A stretch of DNA of 64,000 nt from an uncultured archaeon. GTDB lineage: Archaea; Thermoplasmatota; Thermoplasmata; Thermoplasmatales; Thermoplasmataceae. The stretch's first letter is position 1, and each line of letters starts with the position of its first letter. The translations under genes were made by a program, and so were the position numbers. Below the pieces are notes generated by a model. The model had not been told where the DNA came from. It worked only from the letters and a program-made list of their open reading frames with translations, and did no database searches. Positions 2,486 through 18,567 of this stretch are shown in pieces. Location of the stretch: contig CP009479.1 of NCBI GenBank assembly GCA_000965745.1, forward strand, positions 160,001 to 224,000, given 5' to 3'.

Positions 2486-3740
2486 GGGTGTCCCCTAAAA
2501 GTTGGGGGTAACCTGAGACATCCTGCCAACAGATAGCTTATATTCTTGGGCACTGAAGCCATAGGACCGCTTGAATGCGATACGGATCCTGTTTTTTCAG
2601 GCCTTCAACAATGCCTGAACTTATGCCCGATCTTATTGCTTCGAGAATGCCTTCCATGTGCCGCCACATGGACTTTGCAAGCCTGATGATCTCGGGCATC
2701 CTTGACCTTCTTGCCCAGGATATCCACTTTGCAAGATAGTCCACAACCATCTCATTTCTCAGGGACCAGAGCCTCTGCAGTGACTCCTTGAAATGATATG
2801 CATGTGTGACCTGGAGATCGAGCTTCCTGATATCTTTCAGCTTCTCCTTCTGCTTTTCACTGAGCTTATCAGGATTCATGAACAATGTGTACCGAGTGCC
2901 CTTGAGTATGACATTCTCCCTGGCCTCCTTCCTCCTGATTTTATCAAGTGCATCGTTCATCATCTTGATCACATGGAAGTGATCAAAGACGATCTGAGAG
3001 TCGGGGATATACTTCTCAGCACCGGATATGAACGATGGATCCATGTCCATGGAGACATGCTCTATTCCTTTCGGATCAATGAACGGATTCTTCTGCAGGA
3101 ATCTGAGGAACACCTCCGATTCCTTTCCCTCCTCGATGTGAATTATCCTGCTGTTCCTTATGTCGTAGAACAGCGTCGCATAAACATGATGCTTTTCAAC
3201 TGAGAATTCATCAACTCCCGGCACTGAAATATCCGAGATATCCTGCTCCTTTCTTGCCTCTTCAACATAGTGCCTGAGGATTCTCCACACAGAATCGTCG
3301 CTTATTCCGATCATTCTTGATACGGCGAGTGGAGGCATTTCCCTGCACATCTCCACTATCATCGCCTCGAAGTGAAGGGAGAAGCCTGATCCCCTGCTTG
3401 CCCATGGCATGTCCACCGTCTTCTTCCCATGCTCGGAGCAGAGTATCCTAAGCTCCCTTGCATGCACGTACGTGGGGTACTGGAAAATGTTCAGGTGCCT
3501 CCATGTCCTCTCAGTTGTGTCGTGCACTCCCGCCGATTCATGACACACGGGACATGGGAATTTAGAGCCTCTGGGGAAATCAATGGTGATGTCCACCCTC
3601 TTCTCATTGTGATCAAACCTTATTTCCTTTATTTTCCAGGGTTCCTCAAGGCATAGAAGCTTACTGAACAATCCCTCTGAATCCATGGATTGTGATCGAA
3701 AAGGAATTTATTATTTACCCCCAGTGATCGAGAGAGAACC
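2486..3740 (-). mobile_element. ISL3-family insertion sequence (degenerate)
   Basis: Imperfect terminal IRs GGTTCTCTCTCGATCACTGGGGGTAA (3740, minus strand) and GGGTGTCCCCTAAAAGTTGGGGGTAA (2486) enclose an ISL3 transposase. No matching target duplication seen. Confidence 0.85.
2538..3686 (-). pseudogene. ISL3 transposase, C-terminal frameshift
   Basis: Zn-finger CPVC...CSEHG plus GVDEF, VSMDM and VFDHFHV motifs. After VEGL the expected NRIRIAFKRSYGF continues in another frame after an A-run near 2592-2597. Confidence 0.85.
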
Positions 3741-4373
3741 TCTTTTATTCAACACATCCTGAACCAATGGCATGAGTTCTTCAGGTATACGCAGGTCCCT
3801 CTTATCAAAATCTATAATTTTTGACAGCTCAAGTTCAGACAGCAATGTGTTGTAGCCCTGGCCTTTTACACCTTGTTTGAACCCTTTCCTCCCCGCCAGT
3901 GTCTGGTTCTCGTAGTAGTTTCTATATCTTCTCCCCTCTTCATTAAGTTCTAAAATCGCATTGAGGACTGATCCTCCTTGGTTTCCAAATTTTTCAAGGA
4001 ATTCTTTGATCCGATCTCTGAACATGTCCCAATTTGAACTTTGTGTGAACTCCTTATTTTTTCCATTAAACGTGTAATATTCCCCGTTGAAATCATAGAA
4101 ATCGTTGAGCATCTCCTTGTTTTGTGATAGCCAGTCATTTAACTTCTGATCTGAAATCAGCCTTGCAACCTCTTTGGTCACTTTGTCACTATCAAATCCT
4201 TTGTATTTGTCGTCGTAGCCGTTATCATTGAAGCCAAGACAGTAGTCCGATTTCAGTTCTCTGCACAACTTGAACAGTAGGTTTTCCTCCAGGGTTCTGC
4301 CAGAATAAGACTGAGGACATATTTTTGAAAGGAGAAGAAATCGCTCTTCCTCTTTAGAATTATGTCTGCTCAT
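3711..4373 (-). CDS. hypothetical protein (possible C-terminal winged helix); last codons supplied by the ISL3 end
   Basis: 220-aa ORF with an AT-rich TATA-like upstream region. The final residues GSLSITGGK are read from the IS inverted repeat. Confidence 0.7.
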   Translation of the reverse strand: MSRHNSKEEERFLLLSKICPQSYSGRTLEENLLFKLCRELKSDYCLGFNDNGYDDKYKGFDSDKVTKEVARLISDQKLNDWLSQNKEMLNDFYDFNGEYYTFNGKNKEFTQSSNWDMFRDRIKEFLEKFGNQGGSVLNAILELNEEGRRYRNYYENQTLAGRKGFKQGVKGQGYNTLLSELELSKIIDFDKRDLRIPEELMPLVQDVLNKRGSLSITGGK

Positions 4374-4815
4374 ATTTTGTTAGCAGTAATCTGGATAAAT
4401 ATCTTTCCCTTCATGACATAATGTATTGACTCATGTGTTCCGACCCGTTAAAATCGCTTCTAATCGAACCAGAATGACACCTTGAGTTGAGTCTATGGGG
4501 CACCCTTTTTCTTTCCATTAATCTTCCATCACTTGTAACTTCACGGGTCAAGCTTGCACGGAATTCAAGAAGTCATTTCTTTCAGAGTAGACGCCGAGTA
4601 GGCAAGGATCAGACTGGAAAATGCAAATCACATGGTATCAGCAAAAGTAACCAAAAAATAGCGTAACAAAACTTCTCCCTGATGTCGGTGATTATGTGAG
4701 GGGGAAAGATCATCTGGAGTTCATATCATGCCTGATTAGTGCTTCACCGAATAGCTCTCGCCCTTCTGAATGGTAAAAATGTTTATATTCTATATCACGT
4801 AAATCCCGATAGAGG

Positions 4816-5913
4816 GTGTTTTTAATCGAGACTCAGAAGTTGACTGCAAAACTAAAATATGCTTTTAATGAACTGTCGAAAGACAGGGGTGTTGGATATA
4901 ACCTATTTTTCGTTTGGCCTGTATTCTCGCAAAACCTGATTTATACACTTCAGAAGGCTGGAGCAGAAAAGATCTCACCAAACCAATATCGTGTTATGTG
5001 TACTCAGAACGATGTCAGTTTCTATAGAACGAGGAAACTGTTCGGATCTGATTTTGTTGTAAATGTCTTGGAAGGTGATCAGTATGGCGTTGTAAATGGA
5101 GTTATTAATAAAACGAATTGGAGGGATATTGGAAAAGCAAAATTGGCATTACGCGAGGTTGGACTTAACAACGTTAGCATAACACCTACCTCGTTGTACA
5201 ATTTTTTACTTAACACTCATAATTACGAAGGTTTTCTTCTGAAAGAGTACAGAGCAGGTGCCCCCAAGCTTCAATCTTACTTTAAGGATGACCATGTAGA
5301 TGTTAATCAGAGAATTGTGCTAGAAAAATTAGAAAATGATTGGGCATACGGAATCCGCCCCTATCAAGCAACGCTTAAAGAACCCAGTAAGAGTGTCGAG
5401 ATAAGATTTTACAGTCAAGGTTTTATTTCTATGGCTGTTCTTCCAAAGAGCTTTGGTGTTGTTACAAAACTTATAAGCCACATGTTTAAGGATCATCAAA
5501 AGGCTTTAAATAAGGTATCAGAAGCTGGTAGAGAGCGTTTAAAAACTCCCTCGGTCAACTTGGTTAGACACAAGAATTTGATCCTAAGGCTTGAAGATTA
5601 TGATACTGCATCGAACGGCAAATCACAATCGGCCTTGAGTTACGATGAGGACCGTTTAAATAGCCTTCTTTTGTATCTATCGGAATTTGCCGAGATCTAT
5701 GGAAAGAGGATAGAGGGGCGTTCGTTGGTTTTTAACCTATTATATGAGAAGACACCAGAAAGCGATGAAGTTAATCCAACATTTTCAGTAGACATAACCC
5801 CTAAAAGAGTTCTCGTTAGCCCTACGGGCCCTGTGAACAAAGAGAACTTGATCCATCTGTATTACGGAATAGAAAGGTTCTATAACGTAACTTCAAAGAG
5901 TGATGTAAATTAA
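4816..5913 (+). CDS. uncharacterised protein A1 (paralog of 17680..18567)
   Basis: 365-aa ORF with GAGG upstream of the GTG start. Colinear similarity to the 295-aa ORF at 17680..18567. Confidence 0.8.
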   Translation: MFLIETQKLTAKLKYAFNELSKDRGVGYNLFFVWPVFSQNLIYTLQKAGAEKISPNQYRVMCTQNDVSFYRTRKLFGSDFVVNVLEGDQYGVVNGVINKTNWRDIGKAKLALREVGLNNVSITPTSLYNFLLNTHNYEGFLLKEYRAGAPKLQSYFKDDHVDVNQRIVLEKLENDWAYGIRPYQATLKEPSKSVEIRFYSQGFISMAVLPKSFGVVTKLISHMFKDHQKALNKVSEAGRERLKTPSVNLVRHKNLILRLEDYDTASNGKSQSALSYDEDRLNSLLLYLSEFAEIYGKRIEGRSLVFNLLYEKTPESDEVNPTFSVDITPKRVLVSPTGPVNKENLIHLYYGIERFYNVTSKSDVN

Positions 5914-6952
5914 ATCTCCAAACAAAGAGAAGAGGGAAACTCATATCCGAAGAGCAATCGAACATGCAAAATTCAAATATGTAATTCAAAGGTTGTTCAA
6001 CGACGAAAATGCTACACACGGACACGCTTATCTGGCGTCAGACATTTTTACCTCATTAGAGGATAAGAAGGATGGGTCATGGGACCTCTTAATATGTGAA
6101 ATAGAGGGCTTAGTAAAGAATGAGATCCACCCTATATTTATTGAGGTCAAGTCAACCTTCGAAGACAATGAAAAGTTAGTGGGAGAGATTGTAGCCAAGA
6201 TCAAAAAAACTGAAGAGCTGGCCAAGAACAACGTTCAAGACCTGATACTATCTCAAATATCGGCTGTTGACCCAAAGAAATTCACAATGAGGTGGGATAA
6301 AGCCGAATATGTTGTATTCATTCCAGGCAGACTTTCCATGGGCATCGTTGACTATATTGCCTCTAATTCAAAGAAATGGAAGAATAAAACAGGACTGGTG
6401 ATTTGGTCATACGACAAGGGAGACACTGAACGAGATGTAATACAAATTCCTTATAACCATAGAAATGATATCAAGACTTGTCGAAATATTGACAATGCCA
6501 AATGTAACCTATGCCTATGTAATCATTATAGCTCAAAGATGGCCTCGTTCTTCAGGCATGTTGACAAGCAGGAATTGGAAAAGCCAAGAATAATGCCTTC
6601 TAAGCACAAGTATGTAGACCCAGTTGTAAACATTATTTCAATACTTCACGTGGGAAAATTATTCAGATCTAATGAGAAGAATCTCACCTTGAACGACATC
6701 AAGGAACGTGTTAAACGTTTTTTTATTGATTATAGTATCGAATTGGACAAACAAGAGATTGAATTTTTGATTTACCTGATGAATCGCGGAAAGATTATCC
6801 TTAAAACAAAGGGAGATCCAATGGGAGCTTATCACTTGAATAAGGATATTGCAGATGCTCTAGAAGATGAGAAGCTATTAACGGAAGAAATCGTGAAGCG
6901 AACAGTAAACAACAAGCTGCCTGACACCTTCCTCGAACAATTTGATAAATAG
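5909..6952 (+). CDS. putative PD-(D/E)xK nuclease B1 with Cys cluster, wHTH-like region and PIP-like tail
   Basis: WDLLI...IFIEVKS nuclease motif, CRNIDNAKCNLCLCNH and C-terminal DTFLEQF. The frame is open from ATT 5909; the first standard start is TTG 5993. Confidence 0.7.
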   Translation: MKSPNKEKRETHIRRAIEHAKFKYVIQRLFNDENATHGHAYLASDIFTSLEDKKDGSWDLLICEIEGLVKNEIHPIFIEVKSTFEDNEKLVGEIVAKIKKTEELAKNNVQDLILSQISAVDPKKFTMRWDKAEYVVFIPGRLSMGIVDYIASNSKKWKNKTGLVIWSYDKGDTERDVIQIPYNHRNDIKTCRNIDNAKCNLCLCNHYSSKMASFFRHVDKQELEKPRIMPSKHKYVDPVVNIISILHVGKLFRSNEKNLTLNDIKERVKRFFIDYSIELDKQEIEFLIYLMNRGKIILKTKGDPMGAYHLNKDIADALEDEKLLTEEIVKRTVNNKLPDTFLEQFDK

Positions 6953-7543: not shown

Positions 7544-7912
7544 TCAGTATTGTTTTCTTTCTCTGGACTTATTTTCTAATCCGTATTTTTTAATTTTTTC
7601 GTAGAATGACTTTGGTTTGTTATCCACCTTCAATATAACAACTTTGATGTTATGTGGGCAGTCACCGTGCAGTCCTGAGTGCGCAATTTCACCGTCAATG
7701 TAGGAATCGCAACTCGCGTATGCATACAAGGATTCAAAGGGTGCCCGCATCCCAACTCCGCCACTGATAATGTCTCTGTGAAATCCGTTAAGGCTACTAA
7801 GCCTATATGTTGCTATCCGCCAGTCATTCCATTGTCTTCTTACCTTTACCAGAGTCTCTCTAGGATTCATCTCTTCGTTAGGCTTGCCCTTATCACTTTT
7901 CACTAAAATCAC
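7544..7912 (-). CDS. hypothetical protein with His/Cys-rich motif, coupled to hsdR
   Basis: 122 aa. The start overlaps the hsdR stop (GTGA). Contains SCD...[11 protein letters not shown]. Confidence 0.7.
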
Positions 7913-10900
7913 TCTCCCTTGGCAATCAATTCAGCCTGCTTGATGACAGTTTCTGTTGCCTTCTTCTGCTTATCAGGAGGATAGCCATATTTCCTGAGTA
8001 TTCTCTTGACAGCTGCCCTGAGCTTAGCACGAACGTTCTCCCTCACTGTCCAGTCTATTGTTTTATTCTTCTTTACAGTGTCAACGAGTTCCAGAGCAAT
8101 CTCCCTCAGCGTTTCGTCTCCGAGAACCTTTACTGCAGAGTCGTTCACTTCAAGGGCATCATAGAATGCGAGTTCCTCTTCCGTCATCTTGAGGTCCGAA
8201 CCACGATCCGCGGATGCCTTGACCTCCCTGGCGAGTCCTATGAGTTCCTCTATTACCTGTGCTGCTTCCACTGTGTGGTTCTCATATCTCTTTATTGCAT
8301 CTTTGAGCATATCGGAAAACAATCTGGATTGAACCAGGTTCTTCCTCATGTGCGTACGAAGTTCATCGTTGATGAGTTTTTCAAGCAGTTCGAGTGCGAG
8401 ATTCCTCTGCCGCATGCTCTTGATTGAATTCAGGAACTCATCAGACATTATGGGGGATACATCCGGTTTCTTTATGCCGGCAGCCTCGAATATGTCAATA
8501 ATGCCCCTAGAACCTATGGCTTCAGAAATGATCTGCCTTATGGCTGTATCTGTCTCCTCCCTGCTTCTTTCCGTCGATACCGTGTGCTTGACGATCTGTG
8601 CCTTTATCGCCTGCAGGAATCCAACCTCGTCTCTCACCTCCAGAGCTTCCCTCATGGGAACTGCAAGGGAAAATGCCCTTGACAGTTCCGTTACTGCCTT
8701 TACAAATCTCTCCTTCCCCTGATCAACGCCGAGAATGAAGTTCAGAGCGTTGACAATAATGGTCATCCTCTGGCTACTGCCGGATCTGAAATATATGGAA
8801 TAATCAAAGCCGTGGAAGATATCCCTGCATACTTCCAGTTTCTCCAGCATGACCTTTACTGCTTCTTCCTGGTCAATACCAACGTCCCTCCTGTCTGATG
8901 GAGAATATGAGATAAGAGCACTCTTGAGATTGTATCCTATGCCGATGTAATCGACAATGAGGCCTCCCTGTTTATCCTTGAATACCCTGTTAACGCGGGC
9001 AATGGCCTGCATCAGATTATGCCCTTGCATGATCTTGTCAACATACATCGTATGAAGGATAGGAGCGTCAAATCCTGTGAGCCACATATCCCTGACTATT
9101 ACAATCTCAAGTGGATCATTGGGTCTCTTCAATCTTGAGGCAATATGCTCCCTTCTTGCCTTGTTTCTGATATGAGGTTGCATTTTCTGGGGATCGCTAG
9201 CAGATCCTGTCATTATGACTTTAATAGCACCTGTATCATCCTGATCGGAGTGCCATTCCGGTTTGATCCTGGTGATTGCATCATACATTTCAACGCAGAT
9301 CCTTCTGCTTGTGCATACGACAAGGGCTTTGCCAACCAATGCTGATTCTCTGGCTTCAAAATGCCTGACAATATCAGAAGCGATCTCGTCAATCCTGCTC
9401 TGTGTTCCGACAATGGCTTCTAATCGGGACCACTTGCTTTTCAATCGATCCTGGACTTGTTCTCCCTCCCCTTCTGTTATTTCATCAATCTCCTTGTTGA
9501 TGGAATCCAGTTCATCACGCTTGACATGCAGCTTGACAAGCCTCGCCTCATAGTATATGGGCACGGTGAATTTATCCTCGACAGACCTTTCGATATCATA
9601 GATGTCGATGTAGTCGCCAAATATCTGGACAGTTGTTCTGTCGCTCAGTTCAAGAGGAGTTGCGGTGAACCCGATGAAGGAAGCATTCGGCAGTGCGTCA
9701 TGGAGGTGCCTTGCAAATCCGTCTATGAAATCATACTGCGAGCGGTGTGCTTCATCCGCTATGACGATAACGTTCCTTCTCCCGGTGAGGAGAGGATCCA
9801 TATCATCAGTATCTGGTACAAACTTCTGAATTGTCGTGAAAATTATGCCACCTGAAGCAACCTTGAGCAATTCACGGAGGTTCTTTCTAGTTTCGGCCTG
9901 CACAGGTGTCTGTCTCAGCACCTCATGGCATCTTGAGAAACCATCGAAGAGCTGATTGTCAAGATCATTCCGGTCGGTCATAACGACAATGGTTGGGTTT
10001 TCAAGCGCGGGGTGCTGAATGATCTTACCGGCGTAGAATATCATGGTGATGCTCTTGCCGCTTCCCTGGGTGTGCCATACAACGCCTATCTTCCGATCGC
10101 CATTTTCCGATATGGCATTGAGAGTATTGTTCACAGTGGCATTGACCGCATTGTACTGGTGATAGCCTGCAATCTTCTTTGAAATATTGGATTTATCAAC
10201 CTCGAACAGAATGAAATTAACAATGATATCAAGAATCCTGTCCTTTGAAAAGACATCGTGAACCACTGTGTTCAGATCCGGCTTCCCCACTGGAACATTG
10301 CTCTTCCCCTGAACTGATCTCCACGGCATGAATCTCTGCCAGTCTGAGGTTATGGCCCCAATCTTTGCATCAATTCCGTCTGAGATTACAACGATCTCAT
10401 TGTAATGGAATATGGTGGGTATGTCGTTCTTGTATGTCTGGATCTGGTTGAATGCATCCTCCATGGTTGCATTTTCATTTGCAGGGTTTTTCAGCTCCAT
10501 TATCGCAATGGGAATGCCGTTGATGAAGACAACAACATCAGGCCTGCGTTCCTGCTTCTCCGCAACTGTAAACTGATTCACTACAAGGAAGTCATTATTT
10601 CCAATGTTCTTTGAATCGATCAACTTGAGTGTATCATACCTTACCCTCCCATCTTGATCCTTTGATTCTATTGTGATCCCGTCTGTGAGGTAGCGATGAA
10701 AAATGTGATTGTTCTCAACGATGCTTGGAGCATGATATGTTGTGATCTTCTTGACAGCCTCTTCCCACAAATTGCTGTCAATATTGTTTATTCTTGATAG
10801 GGCAGATTTTAGCCTGTCATACAGGATAACTGACCTGTAATCTCTCCTTTCAGGTGCTGAACCATCATATGCAATGTCCGGTCCGTTCTTCACATCGTAA

Positions 10901-10965
10901 CCTACCTCTCTGAACCATTCAAGGGTAGCATTCTCTGCATCAGATTCAGTGAAGAAACTACTCAT
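7909..10965 (-). CDS. hsdR: type I restriction endonuclease subunit R
   Basis: RRPDVV...MELKN nuclease motif, WHTQGSGKS Walker A, DEAH box, [14 protein letters not shown] and QAIARVNR. Confidence 0.97.
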
Positions 10966-12175
10966 CCGTATCTCCCAGTGGTACGCGGATTTTTCCTGAC
11001 ATAAGCTTTGGAAGAAGAAAATCTCTTATTGAGACCAGCAATGTGCTTTCTCTTTGCGATAGATCTATTTTTTCAAGGATTTTTGCAGATATGGCACCAA
11101 ACAAATTCACCAAAGAGGATGGTGGCTTTATGGATTTTCTATCCAATACTTGATTCTTATTCAATCCTGGAACAGCGCTATGGGAGTTCATCCGATCCAA
11201 ATTTAAGAAACTCAAGAGGTAGTACCAGAAAGTAATGTTTGTCCCGTTTTTTACTTCGACATAATATGTAGTATCAATAGGCCAGAAATCTGTGAAGGAA
11301 AACCTTACTTCGCCAACTGTACCCTTCCTTCCTATTATTATGCCCGGACCTTCAACAAGATGTTTATCGTTATATCCCACTACACCATTTGACCCGAAGA
11401 CCGGTACATAGCCTTCTTGCCTTCTGTCTTGGCGTAGAGATTTTCCATAACGCAGGTCGATAGACTGCGCAATTTTCTCAACATTCCATCCCTTTGGTAT
11501 CTCTCCGAGTTCAGAATCAACCATTTCTCCTTCACTCGACTTATATGGATTTCCATTCTCATCTGGAAACTCAAAATCGATGAACCAGTGCTTGAATATT
11601 GCCTGTGCAGTGGATTCTAAGGTTTTGTTCATTTGTTGGTTGAGTTCGATTTTGGAATCGAGGTCAGCAAGTATCTTGGATATTACCTTTTGTTCCTTTT
11701 CCGGGGGACAGGGTACGATAGATTCTGCTATGACTTCTGCGGTTATTGATGGATACGCAGTCGTGCTGGTCTCAGCTATAGCTGACAAATAACTTGTGTA
11801 TTCATTAGTTGTAATAGAATAGTACAAAAAATCCGAATCTATTTTTCTTGGAGTCAAAACAACGAACCCGGTTGAGGCGATAGTACACGACTTGGAGCCC
11901 TTAATCCTACAGTAATGCTTCAAGTTTGGTCTCACAGAAGAAATCAAGATGTCTTTGTCTTGGACCACTCTTTTTGCTCTAGTTGGAGCTTCATTCAAGG
12001 ATAAATTTGTAGTTTTCCTGATTACCCCCTCCTCTACAGAATCAATGTCAATGTACTCTATGTACCGACAAGCTGTGTTTTTTTTCAGATTCTTTTCATT
12101 GATTGAGGCGAGTTCCTTCACAATTCTAGCGCTCCAACCATTGGGCAAATCGAGAGGAGAGCCATTTTGGTTCAA
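10958..12175 (-). CDS. hsdS: type I restriction-modification specificity subunit S
   Basis: Two target recognition domains separated by the conserved [23 protein letters not shown]...FKHWF and ELGEIPKGW regions. C-terminus [13 protein letters not shown]. Confidence 0.95.
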
Positions 12176-12211: not shown

Positions 12212-13018
12212 TCAATTTTCACTCTCAGTTTCCCCCACAATAACCATTGTTAAATCAAATGCTGCATTCAGCAAATTGGCGACATAATATAATTCATCAG
12301 AAATACTCTCCGATTGCTTTGTCTCAATCAATTTTTCGATATTCTTTTGTTTCTTTGGTTCCGTGATTTTCATCACGGAATCCTCTGCTTTCTTAGCCAA
12401 TTTCTTTGTAAAATTGGCATTTATTGACTCAAAGCCTTGTTGCTTTTGTTCATAAACTTGGAACAATTCTTTCCCAAGAATAGAGCCACTTTTTTTGATC
12501 CGTTCTGAATGCTGAACGAAATCTTTCTCCCCTTCTTTAAACGTAATGTAGTGCTGTTTTTTCTCATCAATCGCGTAATCTTCGCAATCTCGCAACGGAA
12601 TAAGCCTAGAGTTCTTAGTAACTTGCCGACTTAGGAATGCATCCTCAAATCTTTCGCCAGAAGAAACTTCTGGTGCCACATAATATGTTTCTTCATTACC
12701 AAGAATCTGTGCGTGCGCCCATAGGTGTCGATGTTGTTGGTTGTTGTTGGCTTTGTGAAGCTTAAATCTATAATAAGGACCACTGTATGTGCCATCTGCA
12801 ATGAACATCGAATTGCCTCTCGAATATCGTTCACTCAGCTTGAATTGGTAATAAAAGTCCTTTCCTCTAGTTGGTAGTTTAACATCCCATCCTAATTTCG
12901 CTTCTCCTCTTAGGCTTGGGAGAATTGGAACTCCGATGACTTTTCTCCATTTACGAAGGGTTTGTTCGTGAAGGAATGCATAGCCAAAGGAAAACTCAGA
13001 TAAACCTATATCTGCCAT
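12212..13018 (-). CDS. putative restriction-endonuclease-fold (PD-(D/E/Q)xK-like) protein inserted in the hsd operon
   Basis: SEFSFGYA...[10 protein letters not shown]...YQFKLS pattern. The start overlaps the hsdM end. Confidence 0.6.
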
Positions 13019-14670
13019 CCTATATTCTCCAGATTTACCTTTATCTCTTCATCCAATCTATTGCTCTCTTCCATCTGCTGTTTCAATTCAGAAGTTAGCT
13101 TCTGCATCTTTTTCTGGAATTCTTCATCATCGTCCTCCTGCTCTTCAGAACCGACATATCTTCCAGGTGTGAGGACATAGTTGTTCTGTCTGACCTCGTC
13201 AAGCTTCGAAGAATTGCAGAATCCGGGAACGTTTTCATAATGCCCGAATTCTGACTCGCCCCTCCATGCATGATAAGTGTCTGATATCTTCTTTATATCA
13301 TCCGGGCAGAATACTCTGTGTGTTCTGTCCGTCATTGTGCCCGATTTCCTGGCATCGATGAAGAGAGTTTCTCCTCTCCTGTCCCTGAAGTTGTGATTCT
13401 GCCGGTCTCTGGAAAGAAACCATAAACACGCGGGGATGGCAACATTATAAAACAGATTCGTCGGCAGTGCGACAATGCAGTCAACAAGGTCAGCTTCAAC
13501 CATCCCCTTCCTTATGTTGCCTTCATTGCTTGTGTTTGATGATAATGAACCGTTTGCCAGAACAAAACCTGCTGTACCACCGGGAGCAAGGTGATGTATG
13601 AAGTGCTGCACCCAAGCAAAGTTGGCACTTCCCGCTGGTGGTATGCCATATTTCCATCTCATGTCTTCCCTGTGGTTCTGGCCGTTCCAGTCGCTGTCAT
13701 TGAAAGGCGGATTCGCAAGAACGAAATCAGCCTTCAGGTCCCTGTGCTGATCCCTGGAAAATGTATCTGCATTGGTCTCTCCCAGATTGCCGTCGATGCC
13801 CCTGATGGCAAGGTTCATTTTGGCAAGTCTCCAGGTTGTTGGATTTGATTCCTGTCCGTAGACGGATATGTCGCCGATTCTGCCCCCATGGGCCTGTATG
13901 AACTTCTCGGATTGAACGAACATTCCTCCAGAACCACAGCATGGATCGTAAACCCTCCCGTGATACGGTTCAATCATTTCCACCAGCAATCTGACGATGG
14001 ATGCAGGTGTGTAGAACTGTCCCCCCTTCTTTCCCTCGGCAGATGCAAACTGACCGAGAAAGTATTCGTAAACTCTCCCAAGAATATCCTTTGATCTGTT
14101 TGACGAATCACCGAGGCCAATGCTGCCAACTATATCGATCAGCTGCCCGAGTCTCTCCTTATCCAGGGTTGGCCTGTTGTAATCCTTTGGCAGTACTCCT
14201 CTAAGTGAGGTGTTTTCCTTCTCTATTGAGTCCATTGCCTCGTCTATCATCTTCCCTATGAGGGGTGTTTTGGCAGCATTCTGTATCACATGCCATCTCG
14301 CATTTTTTGGAACCCAGAATATATTCTCACCAACATACTCATCACGGTCTTCAGGGTCCGCACCTTCCACTTTTTCCTCAAGCAATGCATTGTAGCGTTC
14401 TTCGAATGAGTCAGATATGTATTTTAAAAAAATCAATCCCAGGACAACATGTTTGTACTCAGCTGCATCCATATTGCTTCTCAGCTTGTCAGCAGCAGCC
14501 CATAGTTTTTTTTCTAGGTCGTGACCCCGGAATTCCTTAATGCAATCTTCCTTGTCTTTGTTGGGAGACGTCCGACCTTGTGATTGGACATTGTTTTGGG
14601 TATTGGTGTAATTGTCTAGTTTTGAATCTACCACCACTGCATACCGATTTAACGGGTATAAAATTTTCAT
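13006..14670 (-). CDS. hsdM: type I R-M N6-adenine methyltransferase subunit M
   Basis: [10 protein letters not shown]-terminal domain, [14 protein letters not shown] (motif I) and NPPF (motif IV). The true start may be further downstream (about 14634). Confidence 0.97.
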
Positions 14671-15017
14671 CCTGCAACGATGTAGTTTTGTTTCTTCTTG
14701 AATATGAAATCAAACTGTTCAAACGTCAACTTGTTCTTGGTCTTCTCGATTTCTTAAGCCAGTTTCATAGCCTTTGTCTTCAGATCCTCTCTTGCTTCCT
14801 CACCCTTATTATATGCATCGAACGCGGTTTCACTCAGCATATTGTTCCAGAGAGGACATACAACAACAAATGTGCCTATCCTGTCCAGAATGAGGGGGAC
14901 CAAACCAATTGTACTTTTGAATTTCACATGGAATGTTCAACTTTCTGTATCCTGCAACTAAAAGATGGAAACATTAAAGTTTAGATAGCTTATATTTAGG
15001 GAAGATTGTCAGAATAT

Positions 15018-15497
15018 ATGCCAGACTCAAAGGTTCCCATTAGTACGTTCATAGAATTGTATAAGATCGAGAGTGGGCTGATTCAAAGGAAGGTTAATCA
15101 GATATTGACCATTCGTTCGATTTCTGTCACTTTTTTGGTTGGAATTCTTACTCTGATTGGGGTTCTTGGTCAAACTTCAATATCAATGGGTGTAGCTTAC
15201 GCATTGATTCTCTTGTTCATACCATTTTATTTACTAGAATCGGTTTACGATTCTCACCTTATACCAATGCATAACCGTGAACTTCTTTTGAAGGAGGAAA
15301 TAGCAAAAATGTTGAACTCGATTTACCCGGGAAATACCATTTCAGACGCCTACAAGACAAGTGGAGTAAGCCTATTTGATTTGTCACTTCACTGGCCCCT
15401 TTTCTATGCCCTGACGAGAAAGATTAGGATAGTATACTACGCGATAATCGTAATAATTTATGTATTAGTTGTCACTCTTATCACAAGCGTTATTTGA
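15018..15497 (+). CDS. 3-TM membrane protein, candidate cyclic-nucleotide-activated effector
   Basis: Amphipathic N-helix (ELYKIESGLIQRK), TM hairpin, soluble helix and C-terminal TM. TTATAT box about 25 nt before ATG 15018 (alternative start TTG 15006). Coupled to the cyclase gene. Confidence 0.75.
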   Translation: MPDSKVPISTFIELYKIESGLIQRKVNQILTIRSISVTFLVGILTLIGVLGQTSISMGVAYALILLFIPFYLLESVYDSHLIPMHNRELLLKEEIAKMLNSIYPGNTISDAYKTSGVSLFDLSLHWPLFYALTRKIRIVYYAIIVIIYVLVVTLITSVI

Positions 15498-15502
15498 GGG
15501 GA

Positions 15503-16219
15503 ATGGAAATGGCATCATGGGCAGACTATTCAAGAGCATCAAGATCTAGAATTAATGAATATGATCGGAAACGAAAAAAATACCCACCTAAGACCGGTTT
15601 GACAATGCCAGATCTCGAAGATTTGCAAATCGGTGGATCTAGGATGTTTCAATTGGCGGTATTGTCGATTGATATAAGGGGATTCACAAAAATAGCCATG
15701 GCTTACAACAACAAGGGAGTTGAAAGTTTAGCGAGAATTCAAGCCTTGTATCTGGCTGAAATGTCTAACATCATTAAAGAATATGATGGAGTTACTGAGA
15801 AATATACCGGGGACGGAGTAATGGGACTATTTGGAACTGAGTCTGATACTAACGCTATAAACGATGTTTCTAATGCGATAAAGGCTGCACTGACAGTGAA
15901 GTTAGTTCTCAAGAACTCTTTGAATCCATATCTAAAAGAGTCAGGACTGACTGAAATTCAACTTGGAATGGGGATCGATTATGGAACCGTCATGATGGAG
16001 AGAGTTGGTCTTAGAGGAGAAAACCAATTCTCGCTTGCTGGGCCTACTGTCAGCCTAGCTTCCAAAATGCAAGCCCAGGCCGAACCGGGGCAAATTATAA
16101 TCGGAGAAGATGTGAAGAAGAGGGTTCAGGGAAACGACTTGAAATTTGTAAAACCTCATAAAATCAATTGGGACTTCACATACCCATTATACCTTTATGA
16201 TGCTACCTGGAAAGAATAG
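15503..16219 (+). CDS. stand-alone class III nucleotide cyclase, Pycsar (PycC)-like
   Basis: SIDIRGFT and EKYTGDGVM carry the metal-binding Asp pair. GMGIDYG and GPTVSLASKMQ are present. N-terminal PDLEDLQIG resembles PycC. No sensor domain. Confidence 0.88.
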   Translation: MEMASWADYSRASRSRINEYDRKRKKYPPKTGLTMPDLEDLQIGGSRMFQLAVLSIDIRGFTKIAMAYNNKGVESLARIQALYLAEMSNIIKEYDGVTEKYTGDGVMGLFGTESDTNAINDVSNAIKAALTVKLVLKNSLNPYLKESGLTEIQLGMGIDYGTVMMERVGLRGENQFSLAGPTVSLASKMQAQAEPGQIIIGEDVKKRVQGNDLKFVKPHKINWDFTYPLYLYDATWKE

Positions 16220-16223
16220 TCAA

Positions 16224-16838
16224 TTCCCTCCTCGATGTGAATTATCCTGCTGTTCCTTATGTCGTAGAACAGCGTCACATAGACATGATGCTTCTCCACC
16301 GAGAATTCATCAACTCCCGGCACTGAGGTGCCAGAATAACCCTCTTTTCACGTGCTTCATCAACATAGTGTCTCATGATTCTCCACACAGAATCGTCGCT
16401 CATCCCGATCATTCTTGATACAGCGAGTGGAGGCATTTCTCTGCACATTTCGACTATCAATGCTTCAAAATGAAGGAAGAAACCTGATCCCCTGCTTGCC
16501 CATGGTACGTTCACAGTCTTCTTTCCATGCTCATTGCACAGTATTCTGGTATCTCTGGCGTGTACATAGGCTGGATACCGGAACACATTCAGGTGTCTCA
16601 ATGTCCTCTCTGTTGTGTCGTGCACTCCGGACGGCTCATGGCACACAGGAAATGGGAATTTCGATCCCCTGGGGAAATCTGTTGTGATGCCAACTCTCTT
16701 CTCGCTGTGATCAACGCTGATACCCTTTATTTTCCAGGGTTACTCAAGGCCTAGAAGCTTCCTGAACAGTTCCTCTGAATCCATGGATTGTGATCGAAAA
16801 GGAGCTTATTATTTACCCCGAATGATCGAGAGAGAACC
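16224..16838 (-). mobile_element. truncated, frameshifted ISL3 copy (left end plus 5' part of transposase)
   Basis: Closely parallels about 3125-3740, including the IR GGTTCTCTCTCGATC at 16838 and ATG GAT TCA GAG at 16784. Homology stops 5 nt after the cyclase stop codon. Confidence 0.9.
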
Positions 16839-16846
16839 AGTTTTAT

Positions 16847-17683
16847 TCAGAACGGGCTTTCAAAGTCAAAAAGTGTTCTTTTCCCAAGTTTTTCCACGTA
16901 ATCCCAGTATCTCCTGATAAAAGACCTCTGGAATTTCTTGCTGTTCTTCGGGAAATATATCTCATTGGCCCTTGCTGTTATCAGGCCAGCCTTGTCCAGG
17001 TCCTGGAGAAGCTCTGAAAAATCTGCCCTGATCATCTCCCTTTCCTCACCGACCGAGAATGCGTACGCCTCTGCAGAGGACTCGTAAAGGATGGTTGGAA
17101 GTGATGCTTTTCCCGTCCTTGCATAGTTGAGCGATATGAATGCAAACTTTACCAGAGGGTCAAGCTGGCTGATGTATGGATGAGGGAAGTTGCCTATAAT
17201 CCGCATACCCTCGTCAGAGGAAAGCTTCTTCAGGAATTCATCTGATGTTTCACCCTTGATCATTGCCCTGGCCGTAGATTTTTCTGTCGAGATCAGCCAG
17301 ATCATCTCAACCGGAAACAGATCAAAGGTTGATTCTCTCTTCAGGGGCTTCCCGTCTGCAATAATCAGGATGGAAGTGACCTTGTCCCTGCTTCCGGAGG
17401 TATCCTGCCTGTCATTTTCCATCTTCACCCTAAGGCCTTCTGCATCCTCAAGGTCGTCGGTGGTAGCATATGCGTAAAAAAACTCGTTTGATTCACTCCT
17501 AGAGACTGTCCGGACTGCCTTTATTCTTGAGTAGCCCTCCTCGATCCGGACATCTTTGACTGAAAGCTGGAGTTCACCGTAATTCTGCTGGATAAGGGAG
17601 TATGCTGCAGAGAGCAGCTCATGCTGCCCCAGGTTCCTCTCAGATTCTTCCTGGCGCTCCCTGATGATTTTCGGCGAGGTCAT
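16847..17683 (-). CDS. uncharacterised protein B2 (paralog of 5909..6952 lacking the nuclease motif; PIP-like tail)
   Basis: 278 aa. ATGA overlap with the upstream gene. Shared blocks with B1. Ends KRTLFDF. Confidence 0.8.
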   Translation of the reverse strand: MTSPKIIRERQEESERNLGQHELLSAAYSLIQQNYGELQLSVKDVRIEEGYSRIKAVRTVSRSESNEFFYAYATTDDLEDAEGLRVKMENDRQDTSGSRDKVTSILIIADGKPLKRESTFDLFPVEMIWLISTEKSTARAMIKGETSDEFLKKLSSDEGMRIIGNFPHPYISQLDPLVKFAFISLNYARTGKASLPTILYESSAEAYAFSVGEEREMIRADFSELLQDLDKAGLITARANEIYFPKNSKKFQRSFIRRYWDYVEKLGKRTLFDFESPF

Positions 17684-18567
17684 CTAACAACATCTCCTTC
17701 AATGCTTTCAAGAATGTCCAGGAGCCCTTCCATCTTGGAGTTAAGGGTCGGCAGGAATTCCAGCGAGTTCCGGTCAAGGTCTATCCTGTATGTTGACCGC
17801 TCATTTCCCCTGTGGAATGCGTAAAACGAAGTGACGCTCCCGGAGCTTCTTATCTCCCCAACGTTGAAATTCCTCCTTATTCTTGAGAAAAATTCCTCTT
17901 TCTGCAGTTCACTTGCAAGCCTGACCGAAAGCTTCTCGACGGGGACAAATTCCTGGTGGTCCAGTTTCATCTTGAGCCTGAGGTGGCTCAGTTTCTCCAG
18001 CATGTCCATATCAGCCTCTATCACGGCAGTTGAGGTCCTGTAAATAAGTTCCATCGCGTCCCAGTACCCACCGTGTATGAAATAATTGAAATCCTTCCTG
18101 ACAGTGACCTTCGAGCTGTCCTTGCTGAACGTCAACAGGAATGGTTTCATCCCCTTCTCCTCGTTCTCCTTCATCAGGTTTATAATGTCTTCTGAATGCC
18201 CTGCACTCCCCGGGGACTTGACATCAAGCCTACCGTTTCCTGATGAGCTGAACCCGTAGAGATCGTATCCCATTAATTTCGCAATATCCATCAGCCTGGA
18301 AAATGAGCTCCCCCGGATCTTCAGGAAGTCAAAATCGTCATAAAAATCCTCCCTGAATGTGGCATACTCGCCATGGGTGAGGGAGGACTGAATAAATCTG
18401 TAATTCTTAATGACAGGTATCGACCTGAGATCGAGATACTGCTGCCTGTGGATCTTGCTTATGAAAAACTCGCCAGGCGTACGGACAAGCGTGTATCTAA
18501 CTGTTCTCCCGCGCGAGAGTTTCGGGAGTGATTGCAGTGCAAGTTCCCTGAATTCTTCAAGCTCCAC
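17680..18567 (-). CDS. uncharacterised protein A2 (paralog of 4816..5913)
   Basis: 295 aa. TATA-like TCATATATAT upstream. Shared blocks with A1. Confidence 0.8.
   Translation of the reverse strand: MELEEFRELALQSLPKLSRGRTVRYTLVRTPGEFFISKIHRQQYLDLRSIPVIKNYRFIQSSLTHGEYATFREDFYDDFDFLKIRGSSFSRLMDIAKLMGYDLYGFSSSGNGRLDVKSPGSAGHSEDIINLMKENEEKGMKPFLLTFSKDSSKVTVRKDFNYFIHGGYWDAMELIYRTSTAVIEADMDMLEKLSHLRLKMKLDHQEFVPVEKLSVRLASELQKEEFFSRIRRNFNVGEIRSSGSVTSFYAFHRGNERSTYRIDLDRNSLEFLPTLNSKMEGLLDILESIEGDVVR

Follow-up and report, generated by a model that had tools for sequence, protein, structure and literature searches.

The genome of a Thermoplasmataceae archaeon (GenBank GCA_000965745.1, contig CP009479.1) carries a pair of genes, here called A1 and B1, best explained as a two-gene operon that is intact, was gained by horizontal transfer and belongs to a rare and unannotated family. 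The pair lies in a stretch of 64,000 nucleotides (nt), positions 160,001-224,000 of the forward strand, which we refer to as the window and in whose numbering positions are given. B1 and its relatives have the sequence features of a PD-(D/E)xK nuclease joined to a winged-helix domain, and the predicted structure of A suggests an RdgC-like DNA-binding partner. By examining the conservation of the two proteins, their joint occurrence, the junction between their genes and the genomic settings of their relatives, we arrive at the reading that A-B is a DNA-targeting defence or exclusion module, a role that we infer and to which we assign a probability of about 0.5.

Results

A predicted nuclease with a Cys/His cluster and a winged helix

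The B family, as aligned here, comprises 15 sequences of 20-53% identity, and across it the D...ExK motif and the Cys/His cluster that a preliminary description of this DNA had picked out in B1 proved to be real and conserved. Where the respective region is present, D59 is kept in 13 of 13 sequences, E79 in 14 of 14, and K81, K97, E133, W166, Y182 and C204 in 15 of 15; the aspartate is followed by ExK at a spacing of 20 residues, the expectation for a PD-(D/E)xK motif being about 15-25. When the N-terminal profile of B was run by hhalign against a NOV_C/DUF3883 alignment built from 19 loci of the phylum, the two were joined at an E value of 5.5e-4 (probability 30%) over 28 columns covering the motif, GSWD...PIFIEVKS of B being paired with G-y-D-i...IEVKg of NOV_C, while five controls gave values of 0.04-0.5. 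Two B members also match the Pfam NOV_C model over the same motif at sub-threshold levels (E 0.025 and 0.08, the best reaching 15 bits against a cut-off of 22).

Within the Cys/His cluster, C191, C199, C202 and H206 are kept in 11-13 of the 15 family members, besides the invariant C204, and the cluster is probably a zinc site. The prediction that B is a PD-(D/E)xK endonuclease of the Mg-dependent type is well supported; a Cys3-4/His cluster and a predicted winged-helix DNA-binding domain follow.

A predicted RdgC-like partner

No family in any of the libraries matches A1, in which the preliminary description had recognised no motif. The A family has conserved motifs of its own: EYRAG-x2-KLQSYFKD (residues 144-158), an invariant hairpin motif and the most conserved in the protein, and then G-[LI]-[RK]-P-Y (residues 179-183). 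A structure model computed from a 12-row alignment, with a predicted local distance difference test score (pLDDT) of 80.9 and a predicted template modelling score (pTM) of 0.83, consists of repeated alpha+beta modules. Compared by Foldseek with the PDB, it resembles RdgC (2owy, 2owl) with probability 1.0 and an E value of 2.7e-4 over about 300 columns, at a TM score of only about 0.3; RnlA, CENP-L/Iml3 and TBP are further structural neighbours. Among the predicted viral structures of BFVD, many phage entries labelled "recombination-associated protein RdgC" match A as well (probability 0.95-1.0).

The model shows a predicted fold of three TBP-like/KA1-like alpha+beta modules resembling RdgC, and suggests that A may be an RdgC-like DNA-binding partner of B. 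The preliminary description had proposed that A is a sensor or scaffold controlling the nuclease, whereas the predicted fold points rather to DNA binding. By sequence, none of the 10-12 A members searched matches an RdgC family model in Pfam or NCBIfam. RdgC is a double-strand-DNA-binding protein of bacteria and phages. It forms rings and is tied to recombination and fork repair (PMC11390915). One A homologue, P0027 of genome G022 (L025 2096-3172, minus strand), bears a precomputed match to Pfam PF27341.1, so that part of A may already be covered by a Pfam family of recent date.

Pairing, rarity and family status

A homologue of A, of 328-363 amino acids (aa), stands immediately upstream of B in 14 of the 14 contexts examined. 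These take in every B subfamily with a retrievable context: the window pair (pair 1), a further pair in the same genome (pair 3), L001, L007, L009, L010, a Logan contig, L017, L019, L021, L023, L028, L030 and L032, together with G022. The A profile and the B profile, moreover, each match the same two genomes in a sample of 401 from the phylum, namely their own genome and G022. Because A is upstream in all 14 contexts and the two genes share an identical phyletic pattern, the notion of a conserved functional unit, which the preliminary description had put forward and for which co-occurrence was checked here, is supported.

No third gene is conserved across these contexts: the small open reading frames (ORFs) that lie 5' of A in seven of them are mutually unrelated, and the 220-aa ORF that precedes A1 shows no relation to the 286-aa ORF found at the corresponding place in L001. 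Neither are there A-B fusion proteins among the cluster representatives; the sole long match, P0026 (709 aa), was dismissed as a fusion, as it matches only the Cys-rich stretch, repeatedly. In one metagenome-assembled genome (L023 1122-2180), A is split into two ORFs of 156 and 184 aa, the break falling exactly at the predicted domain boundary between the QSYFKD and G-L-x-P-Y motifs.

The family is rare. When 1.84 billion cluster representatives were searched exhaustively with the profile, only 14 relatives of B reached E <= 1e-3, and a search of species-representative genomes and IMG/VR viral contigs with a 5-row B alignment yielded none; so far, the family seems to be restricted to archaea of the Thermoplasmatota type and to the mobile elements that they carry. 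Neither A1 nor B1, taken individually or as a family profile, significantly matches anything in Pfam, NCBIfam, PADLOC, PHROGs or PDB sequences, and a profile search of the PDB likewise gave no significant match for A or B. In PADLOC-DB 2.0, which includes Shedu, Hachiman, Lamassu and Avs, no family was found at E <= 1 for A1, B1 or the distant pair A2-B2 described below. The comparison with catalogued systems that had been suggested at the outset therefore leaves the pair without a PADLOC model; A-B is not a member of any catalogued system, and presents the nuclease-effector theme with an uncatalogued type of partner.

Start codons and translational coupling

The B1 frame opens at 5909, right after an in-frame TAA at 5906-5908, and contains no ATG, GTG or TTG before the TTG at 5993; a canonical-start call would thus give a protein of 319 aa, separated from A1 by an 80-nt gap. 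Four relatives (about 53% identity, 342-344 aa) begin with a methionine aligned exactly to codon 5909, as do homologues of 342-355 aa. It is on account of these aligned methionines that the B1 start is taken as 5909 (ATTAA over the A1 stop), and with this start the overlap of the two genes, which had been noted earlier, holds true.

An isoleucine codon serving as B start and overlapping the A stop occurs in 4 of the 14 pairs (ATTAA in pair 1, ATAG in pair 3, ATAA in L030 and TAATA in L032), and in those four the conserved N-terminal helix of B lies 5' of the first canonical start; in the remaining pairs B starts at an ATG 0-13 nt past the A stop, or at TTGA. From residue 5 onward, B3 (the B protein of pair 3) is 43% identical to the L032 protein, and the L030 protein is 33% identical to P0018. 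Since the upstream segments are conserved as protein, they are taken to be translated, and the gene-caller products (319, 321, 330 and 360 aa) to be shortened.

These junctions strongly support A and B as a translationally coupled pair, in which B would be made by termination-reinitiation at a near-cognate codon, so that there would be much less nuclease than A. We considered a programmed frameshift producing an A-B fusion and rejected it: with respect to A, B is read in the +1 frame in pair 1 and in the -1 frame in pair 3, L030 and L032, the B frame of pair 1 opens only at 5909, and the relatives have a separate ATG after in-frame stops.

The locus and its island

Both reading frames are intact and lie on the same strand. 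An A-rich stretch resembling a transcription factor B recognition element (BRE) stands 5' of the TATA-box-like element TTTATATT (Table 1). In archaeal promoters, a TATA box about 27-34 nt 5' of the start fits a leaderless transcript, and the spacing of TTTATATT implies that the A1-B1 transcript may be leaderless or nearly so.

A1 has a GC content of 0.383 and B1 one of 0.376, the value for the 2.23-Mb genome being 0.464; hence the pair is indeed AT-rich, and it does stand beside a type I restriction-modification (R-M) system, both as the preliminary description had it, the hsd genes following immediately downstream on the opposite strand. The nucleotide-cyclase module beyond them includes a stand-alone class III nucleotide cyclase of 241 aa (Guanylate_cyc, E 1.5e-15), and its arrangement, as read from the genes, is Pycsar-like. 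An intact ISL3 transposase gene forms one border of the island and a remnant in the same orientation the other, a composite-transposon-like geometry in which the defence cargo enclosed measures about 12.5 kb. From 19197 onward the genes are housekeeping ones (MoaC, MoaB). A setting in a defence island or mobile element is supported, and it is from the GC content of 38% against 46% for the genome, together with this ISL3-flanked island, that the foreign origin of A1-B1 is deduced.

Table 1. Coordinates of the features discussed (window numbering unless a locus or genome is named)
Feature	Position	Strand	Remarks
TATA-box-like element TTTATATT	4782..4789	+	27-34 nt 5' of the A1 start codon; read from sequence
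Gene A1	4816..5913	+	365 aa, GTG start, isoelectric point 9.2, predicted RdgC-like
Gene B1	5909..6952	+	347 aa from ATT 5909; overlaps the A1 stop TAA 5911-5913
Predicted PD-(D/E)xK core of B1	5996..6343	+	about residues 30-145
Putative catalytic codons of B1	D59 6083-6085, E79 6143-6145, K81 6149-6151	+	
Cys/His cluster of B1	6479..6526	+	C191-x7-C199-x2-C202-x-C204-x-H206, between nuclease domain and winged helix
Winged-helix-like C-terminal domain of B1	6599..6916	+	about residues 231-336; includes conserved K-Y-V-D-P-V-V-N-I-I
B1 C-terminal tail KLPDTFLEQFDK	6920..6949	+	degenerate motif resembling a PCNA-interacting peptide
Ile-start junctions	window 5909-5913; L016 ~10122-10127 (-); L030 7923-7926; L032 4668-4672		
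Intact ISL3 transposase	2538-3686		one border of the island
Orphan genes flanking A1-B1	3711-4373 (220 aa), 7544-7912 (122 aa)	-	no family match
hsdR	7909-10965	opposite to A1-B1	type I R-M, directly downstream of the pair
hsdS	10958-12175	opposite to A1-B1	type I R-M
Orphan 268-aa gene	12212-13018	-	between hsdS and hsdM, overlapping the hsdM end; no family match
hsdM	13006-14670	opposite to A1-B1	type I R-M
Nucleotide-cyclase module	15006-16219	+	163-aa orphan gene overlapping the 241-aa cyclase
ISL3 remnant	16224-16635		far border of the island; direct repeat, 80-95% identical to 3125-3537
B2	16847..17683	-	278 aa, overlaps A2 by ATGA
A2	17680..18567	-	295 aa, GC 0.48, distant A homologue
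Pair A3-B3	G000:C1:1135030-1137140 (locus L016 8956-11195)	-	found by the A and B profiles

Settings of the relatives and a second copy

Several relatives reside on mobile DNA or beside defence genes. In L019/L020 and L032/L033 the pairs follow a PadR-like gene within elements that bear an integrase and resemble proviruses or plasmids; in L021 the pair adjoins MvaI/BcnI-type and other R-M genes, in L030 an MmeI-like enzyme and an integrase, and in L028 a bpMoxR/NYN/SMC-type cluster. The genome that carries A1-B1 also contains a real second copy of the module, A3-B3 (pair 3). A3 has 357 aa and B3 about 389 aa counted from an ATA codon; the pair is diverged, keeps D, ExK and the other invariant nuclease residues, has a GC content of 0.38-0.40, and adjoins a DUF5906 primase-like gene, an NYN/OST-HTH gene and an insertion sequence (IS) transposase.

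In two subfamilies a MethyltransfD12 (Dam-like) gene is convergent to B or lies shortly 3' of it (L019 10749-11450, L020 8863-9618, L021 2283-3035). The other contexts do not have this gene; no methyltransferase is linked in L001, L007, L028 or L032, and the only one in the window is hsdM, which belongs to the separate type I system. A reading of A-B as an R-M system was rejected, there being no consistently linked methyltransferase.

The A2-B2 pair

The preliminary description had further stated that the A-B arrangement recurs at 16847-18567, and this stands for A only. Comparison of the A and A2 families by hhalign gave a probability of 95.9% and an E value of 5.6e-9 over 277 columns, including G-x-[KR]-P-[YF], so that A2 is homologous to A. 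B2, by contrast, is not significantly similar to B in hhalign (E 0.059 for the whole proteins and 0.015 for the C-terminal halves, reversed-sequence controls giving 0.006-0.36) and lacks both the D...ExK motif and the Cys cluster; BLASTP found nothing between A1 and A2 or between B1 and B2. B2 is present in 30 of 61 genomes and 11 of 20 genera of the family Thermoplasmataceae, A2 lies directly upstream of it in 17 of the 20 loci retrieved, and in the phylum sample A2 was not found outside the Thermoplasmataceae. The GC content of A2-B2 is host-like (0.48). Judged by these features, A2-B2 is evidently a native, vertically inherited, distant pair devoid of the nuclease motif, and not a second copy of the island system.

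The tail of B2, K-[RK]-T-[LI]-[FY]-D-[FY]-E, is strongly conserved and near-invariant, of the type KRTLFDFE. We take it to resemble TLFDF, presumably the PCNA-interacting peptide (PIP) of Pyrococcus RFC-L, and tails of the KRTLFDFE type are a candidate clamp-docking motif on B2.

The C-terminal tail of B and the PCNA clamp

A resemblance of the B1 tail to a PIP had also been proposed. It is borne out in part, in the relatives: 8 of the 15 B tails end in [ST]-[FL]-[LD]-[ED]-[QS]-F, as QTFLEQF[IDY] in the close relatives and otherwise as TLDQF or SLDSF, all partial PIP matches, whereas the tail of B1 itself, DTFLEQFDK, is degenerate. The C-terminus of the host FEN1 reads QANLDSFF, and the genome encodes a single PCNA (G000:C1:1230608-1231357). 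Co-folding of the host PCNA (25-row alignment) with residues 308-347 of B1 gave an ipSAE of 0.01, a value that weighs neither for nor against binding. Speculatively, B might dock on the PCNA clamp.

Discussion

If A-B is a defence or exclusion module, its parts could work together as follows. A would load on or encircle DNA and position or license B, which would cut it; coupled reinitiation at the weak AUU/AUA codon would keep a dangerous nuclease sub-stoichiometric to A; and the unit would act against viruses and plasmids, or in exclusion between elements, on defence islands and integrated elements. In a more speculative step, the conserved C-terminal phi-x-x-F tail would dock B on PCNA, so that it would act on replicating DNA.

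Several observations weigh against this account. The structure model of B, computed from five close sequences, has a pLDDT of 49, so that the case for a nuclease fold and a winged-helix fold depends on motifs together with structural matches that are weak; the global Foldseek matches of this model (ORC/Cdc6, CED-4) were dismissed as meaningless. The B1 tail, with no Q and no second aromatic residue, fails the PIP consensus Q-x-x-[LIVM]-x-x-[FYW]-[FYW]. B1 lacks a canonical start and is possibly poorly expressed or silent in this strain. To these come the absence of any PADLOC match, the position of the L001 and L017 pairs mainly among ordinary metabolic and housekeeping genes, and the likeness of several contexts to the replication or early region of integrated elements, which would fit a maintenance function equally.

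Such a function is the substance of one alternative, according to which A-B serves the replication, recombination or maintenance of integrated plasmids or viruses, an RdgC-like protein and a structure-specific nuclease acting at the forks of the element or the cell, with no part in immunity. RdgC proteins are recombination- and fork-associated (PMC11390915) and are carried by phages; the L019/L020 and L032/L033 pairs sit among small early-type genes behind the PadR-like regulator in integrase-bearing elements; pair 3 adjoins the primase-like gene; and the distant A2-B2 is chromosomal, vertically inherited and endowed with a clamp-motif-like TLFDF tail. However, a maintenance module sits poorly with the extreme rarity and patchiness of A-B (2 of 401 genomes) and with its repeated position next to R-M and other defence genes, and neither a replication initiator, an integrase or a partition gene nor any conserved third gene is consistently linked to it across the 14 contexts; we regard this alternative as unlikely. 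The strict order of A before B, the overlap of start and stop with AUU/AUA starts in 4 of 14 pairs, and the residence on mobile DNA would also suit a toxin-antitoxin or abortive-infection addiction pair, with B as a DNase toxin inhibited by A and the weak coupled start ensuring an excess of A; the fold neighbours of A include TBP-like repeat domains from the toxins RnlA/LsoA, a purely structural likeness. Yet A, at about 360 aa, basic and RdgC-like, is unlike typical labile antitoxins, and the idea leaves the vertically inherited, nuclease-motif-free paralogous pair A2-B2 unexplained, so that we consider it distinctly improbable.

The copy in this strain might, finally, be a decaying remnant in which the B1 ATG has become ATT, B1 is no longer made, and the ISL3 island carries the locus along as cargo without function. 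That the frame holds no ATG, GTG or TTG from the stop at 5906-5908 as far as 5993 would agree with this, as would the ATG starts of all the closest relatives and the D in the B1 tail where those relatives have Q. Against it, the frames are unbroken over 365 and 347 codons and retain every invariant residue, an isoleucine codon over the stop is found in three other pairs as well, and in the B3/L032 lineage this start persists across 43% identity with the upstream segment conserved as protein; decay is, in our view, very improbable.

A broader conjecture would join the two kinds of pair. A/A2 and B/B2 might constitute an unrecognised superfamily of clamp-associated modules in Thermoplasmatota, in each of which an RdgC-like DNA ring protein has a winged-helix partner that docks on PCNA via a phi-x-x-F tail: A2-B2, nuclease-dead and ending in KRTLFDFE, would serve the host fork, while the mobile A-B would have retained, or else acquired, an active PD-(D/E)xK nuclease directed against replicating foreign DNA, its dose set by termination-reinitiation at AUU/AUA. 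We hold the conjecture to be improbable.

Apart from CRISPR and R-M, the immunity of archaea has been sampled only thinly to date, and if A-B is a defence or exclusion module, it would add an archaea-specific two-gene nuclease system with an uncatalogued, RdgC-like type of partner. The AUU/AUA nuclease starts placed over the upstream stop recur in the family and give a specific example, open to testing, of how archaea may couple initiation at non-canonical codons to upstream termination; standard gene callers shorten such B genes by 23-80 codons. A2-B2, with its conserved TLFDF-type tail, is a lead to an unstudied and possibly clamp-associated function in Thermoplasmataceae.

Comparison with known systems

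Mrr-type (type IV) restriction enzymes combine a winged helix with a PD-(D/E)xK nuclease and have no cognate methylase. B is like them in this combination, in the lack of a consistently linked methyltransferase and in residence on defence islands; in B, however, the domain order is reversed, with the nuclease first, there is an obligatory partner gene, A, and neither Mrr_cat nor Mrr_N of the Pfam library matches. NucS/EndoMS is an archaeal PCNA-tethered PD-(D/E)xK nuclease and thus shares with B the type of nuclease, its archaeal host and a short aromatic C-terminal motif, whereas B differs in its architecture, its mobile and rare distribution and the degenerate motif of B1, and has no match to NucS (PF01939).

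RdgC (E. coli 2owl/2owy, and phage proteins) is similar to A in size, and the predicted fold of A, a basic protein, resembles it along the whole chain; in contrast to RdgC, A has no sequence-model match and bears its own EYRAG..KLQSYFKD motif. To our knowledge, RdgC is not known to pair with a nuclease. The "RdgC-like" proteins known to date from archaea and Bacillus are encoded in histone-fold operons (PMC11390915), and A is not.

The closest likeness of B in sequence is to NOV_C/DUF3883 (PF13020), whose core, G-aromatic-D ... h-h-I-E-V-K, aligns with B column for column. NOV_C and the PD-(D/E)xK effector domains of HamA of Hachiman (8vxy) and of Avs3/Avs4 (8dgc/8dgf) have the same order of secondary structure as is predicted for B and are likewise defence-associated. 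B, however, reaches no Pfam model at threshold and is not fused to an ATPase or helicase; it stands alone, at about 345 aa, and brings a Cys/His (putative zinc) cluster and a predicted winged helix of its own, with an RdgC-like partner encoded immediately upstream.

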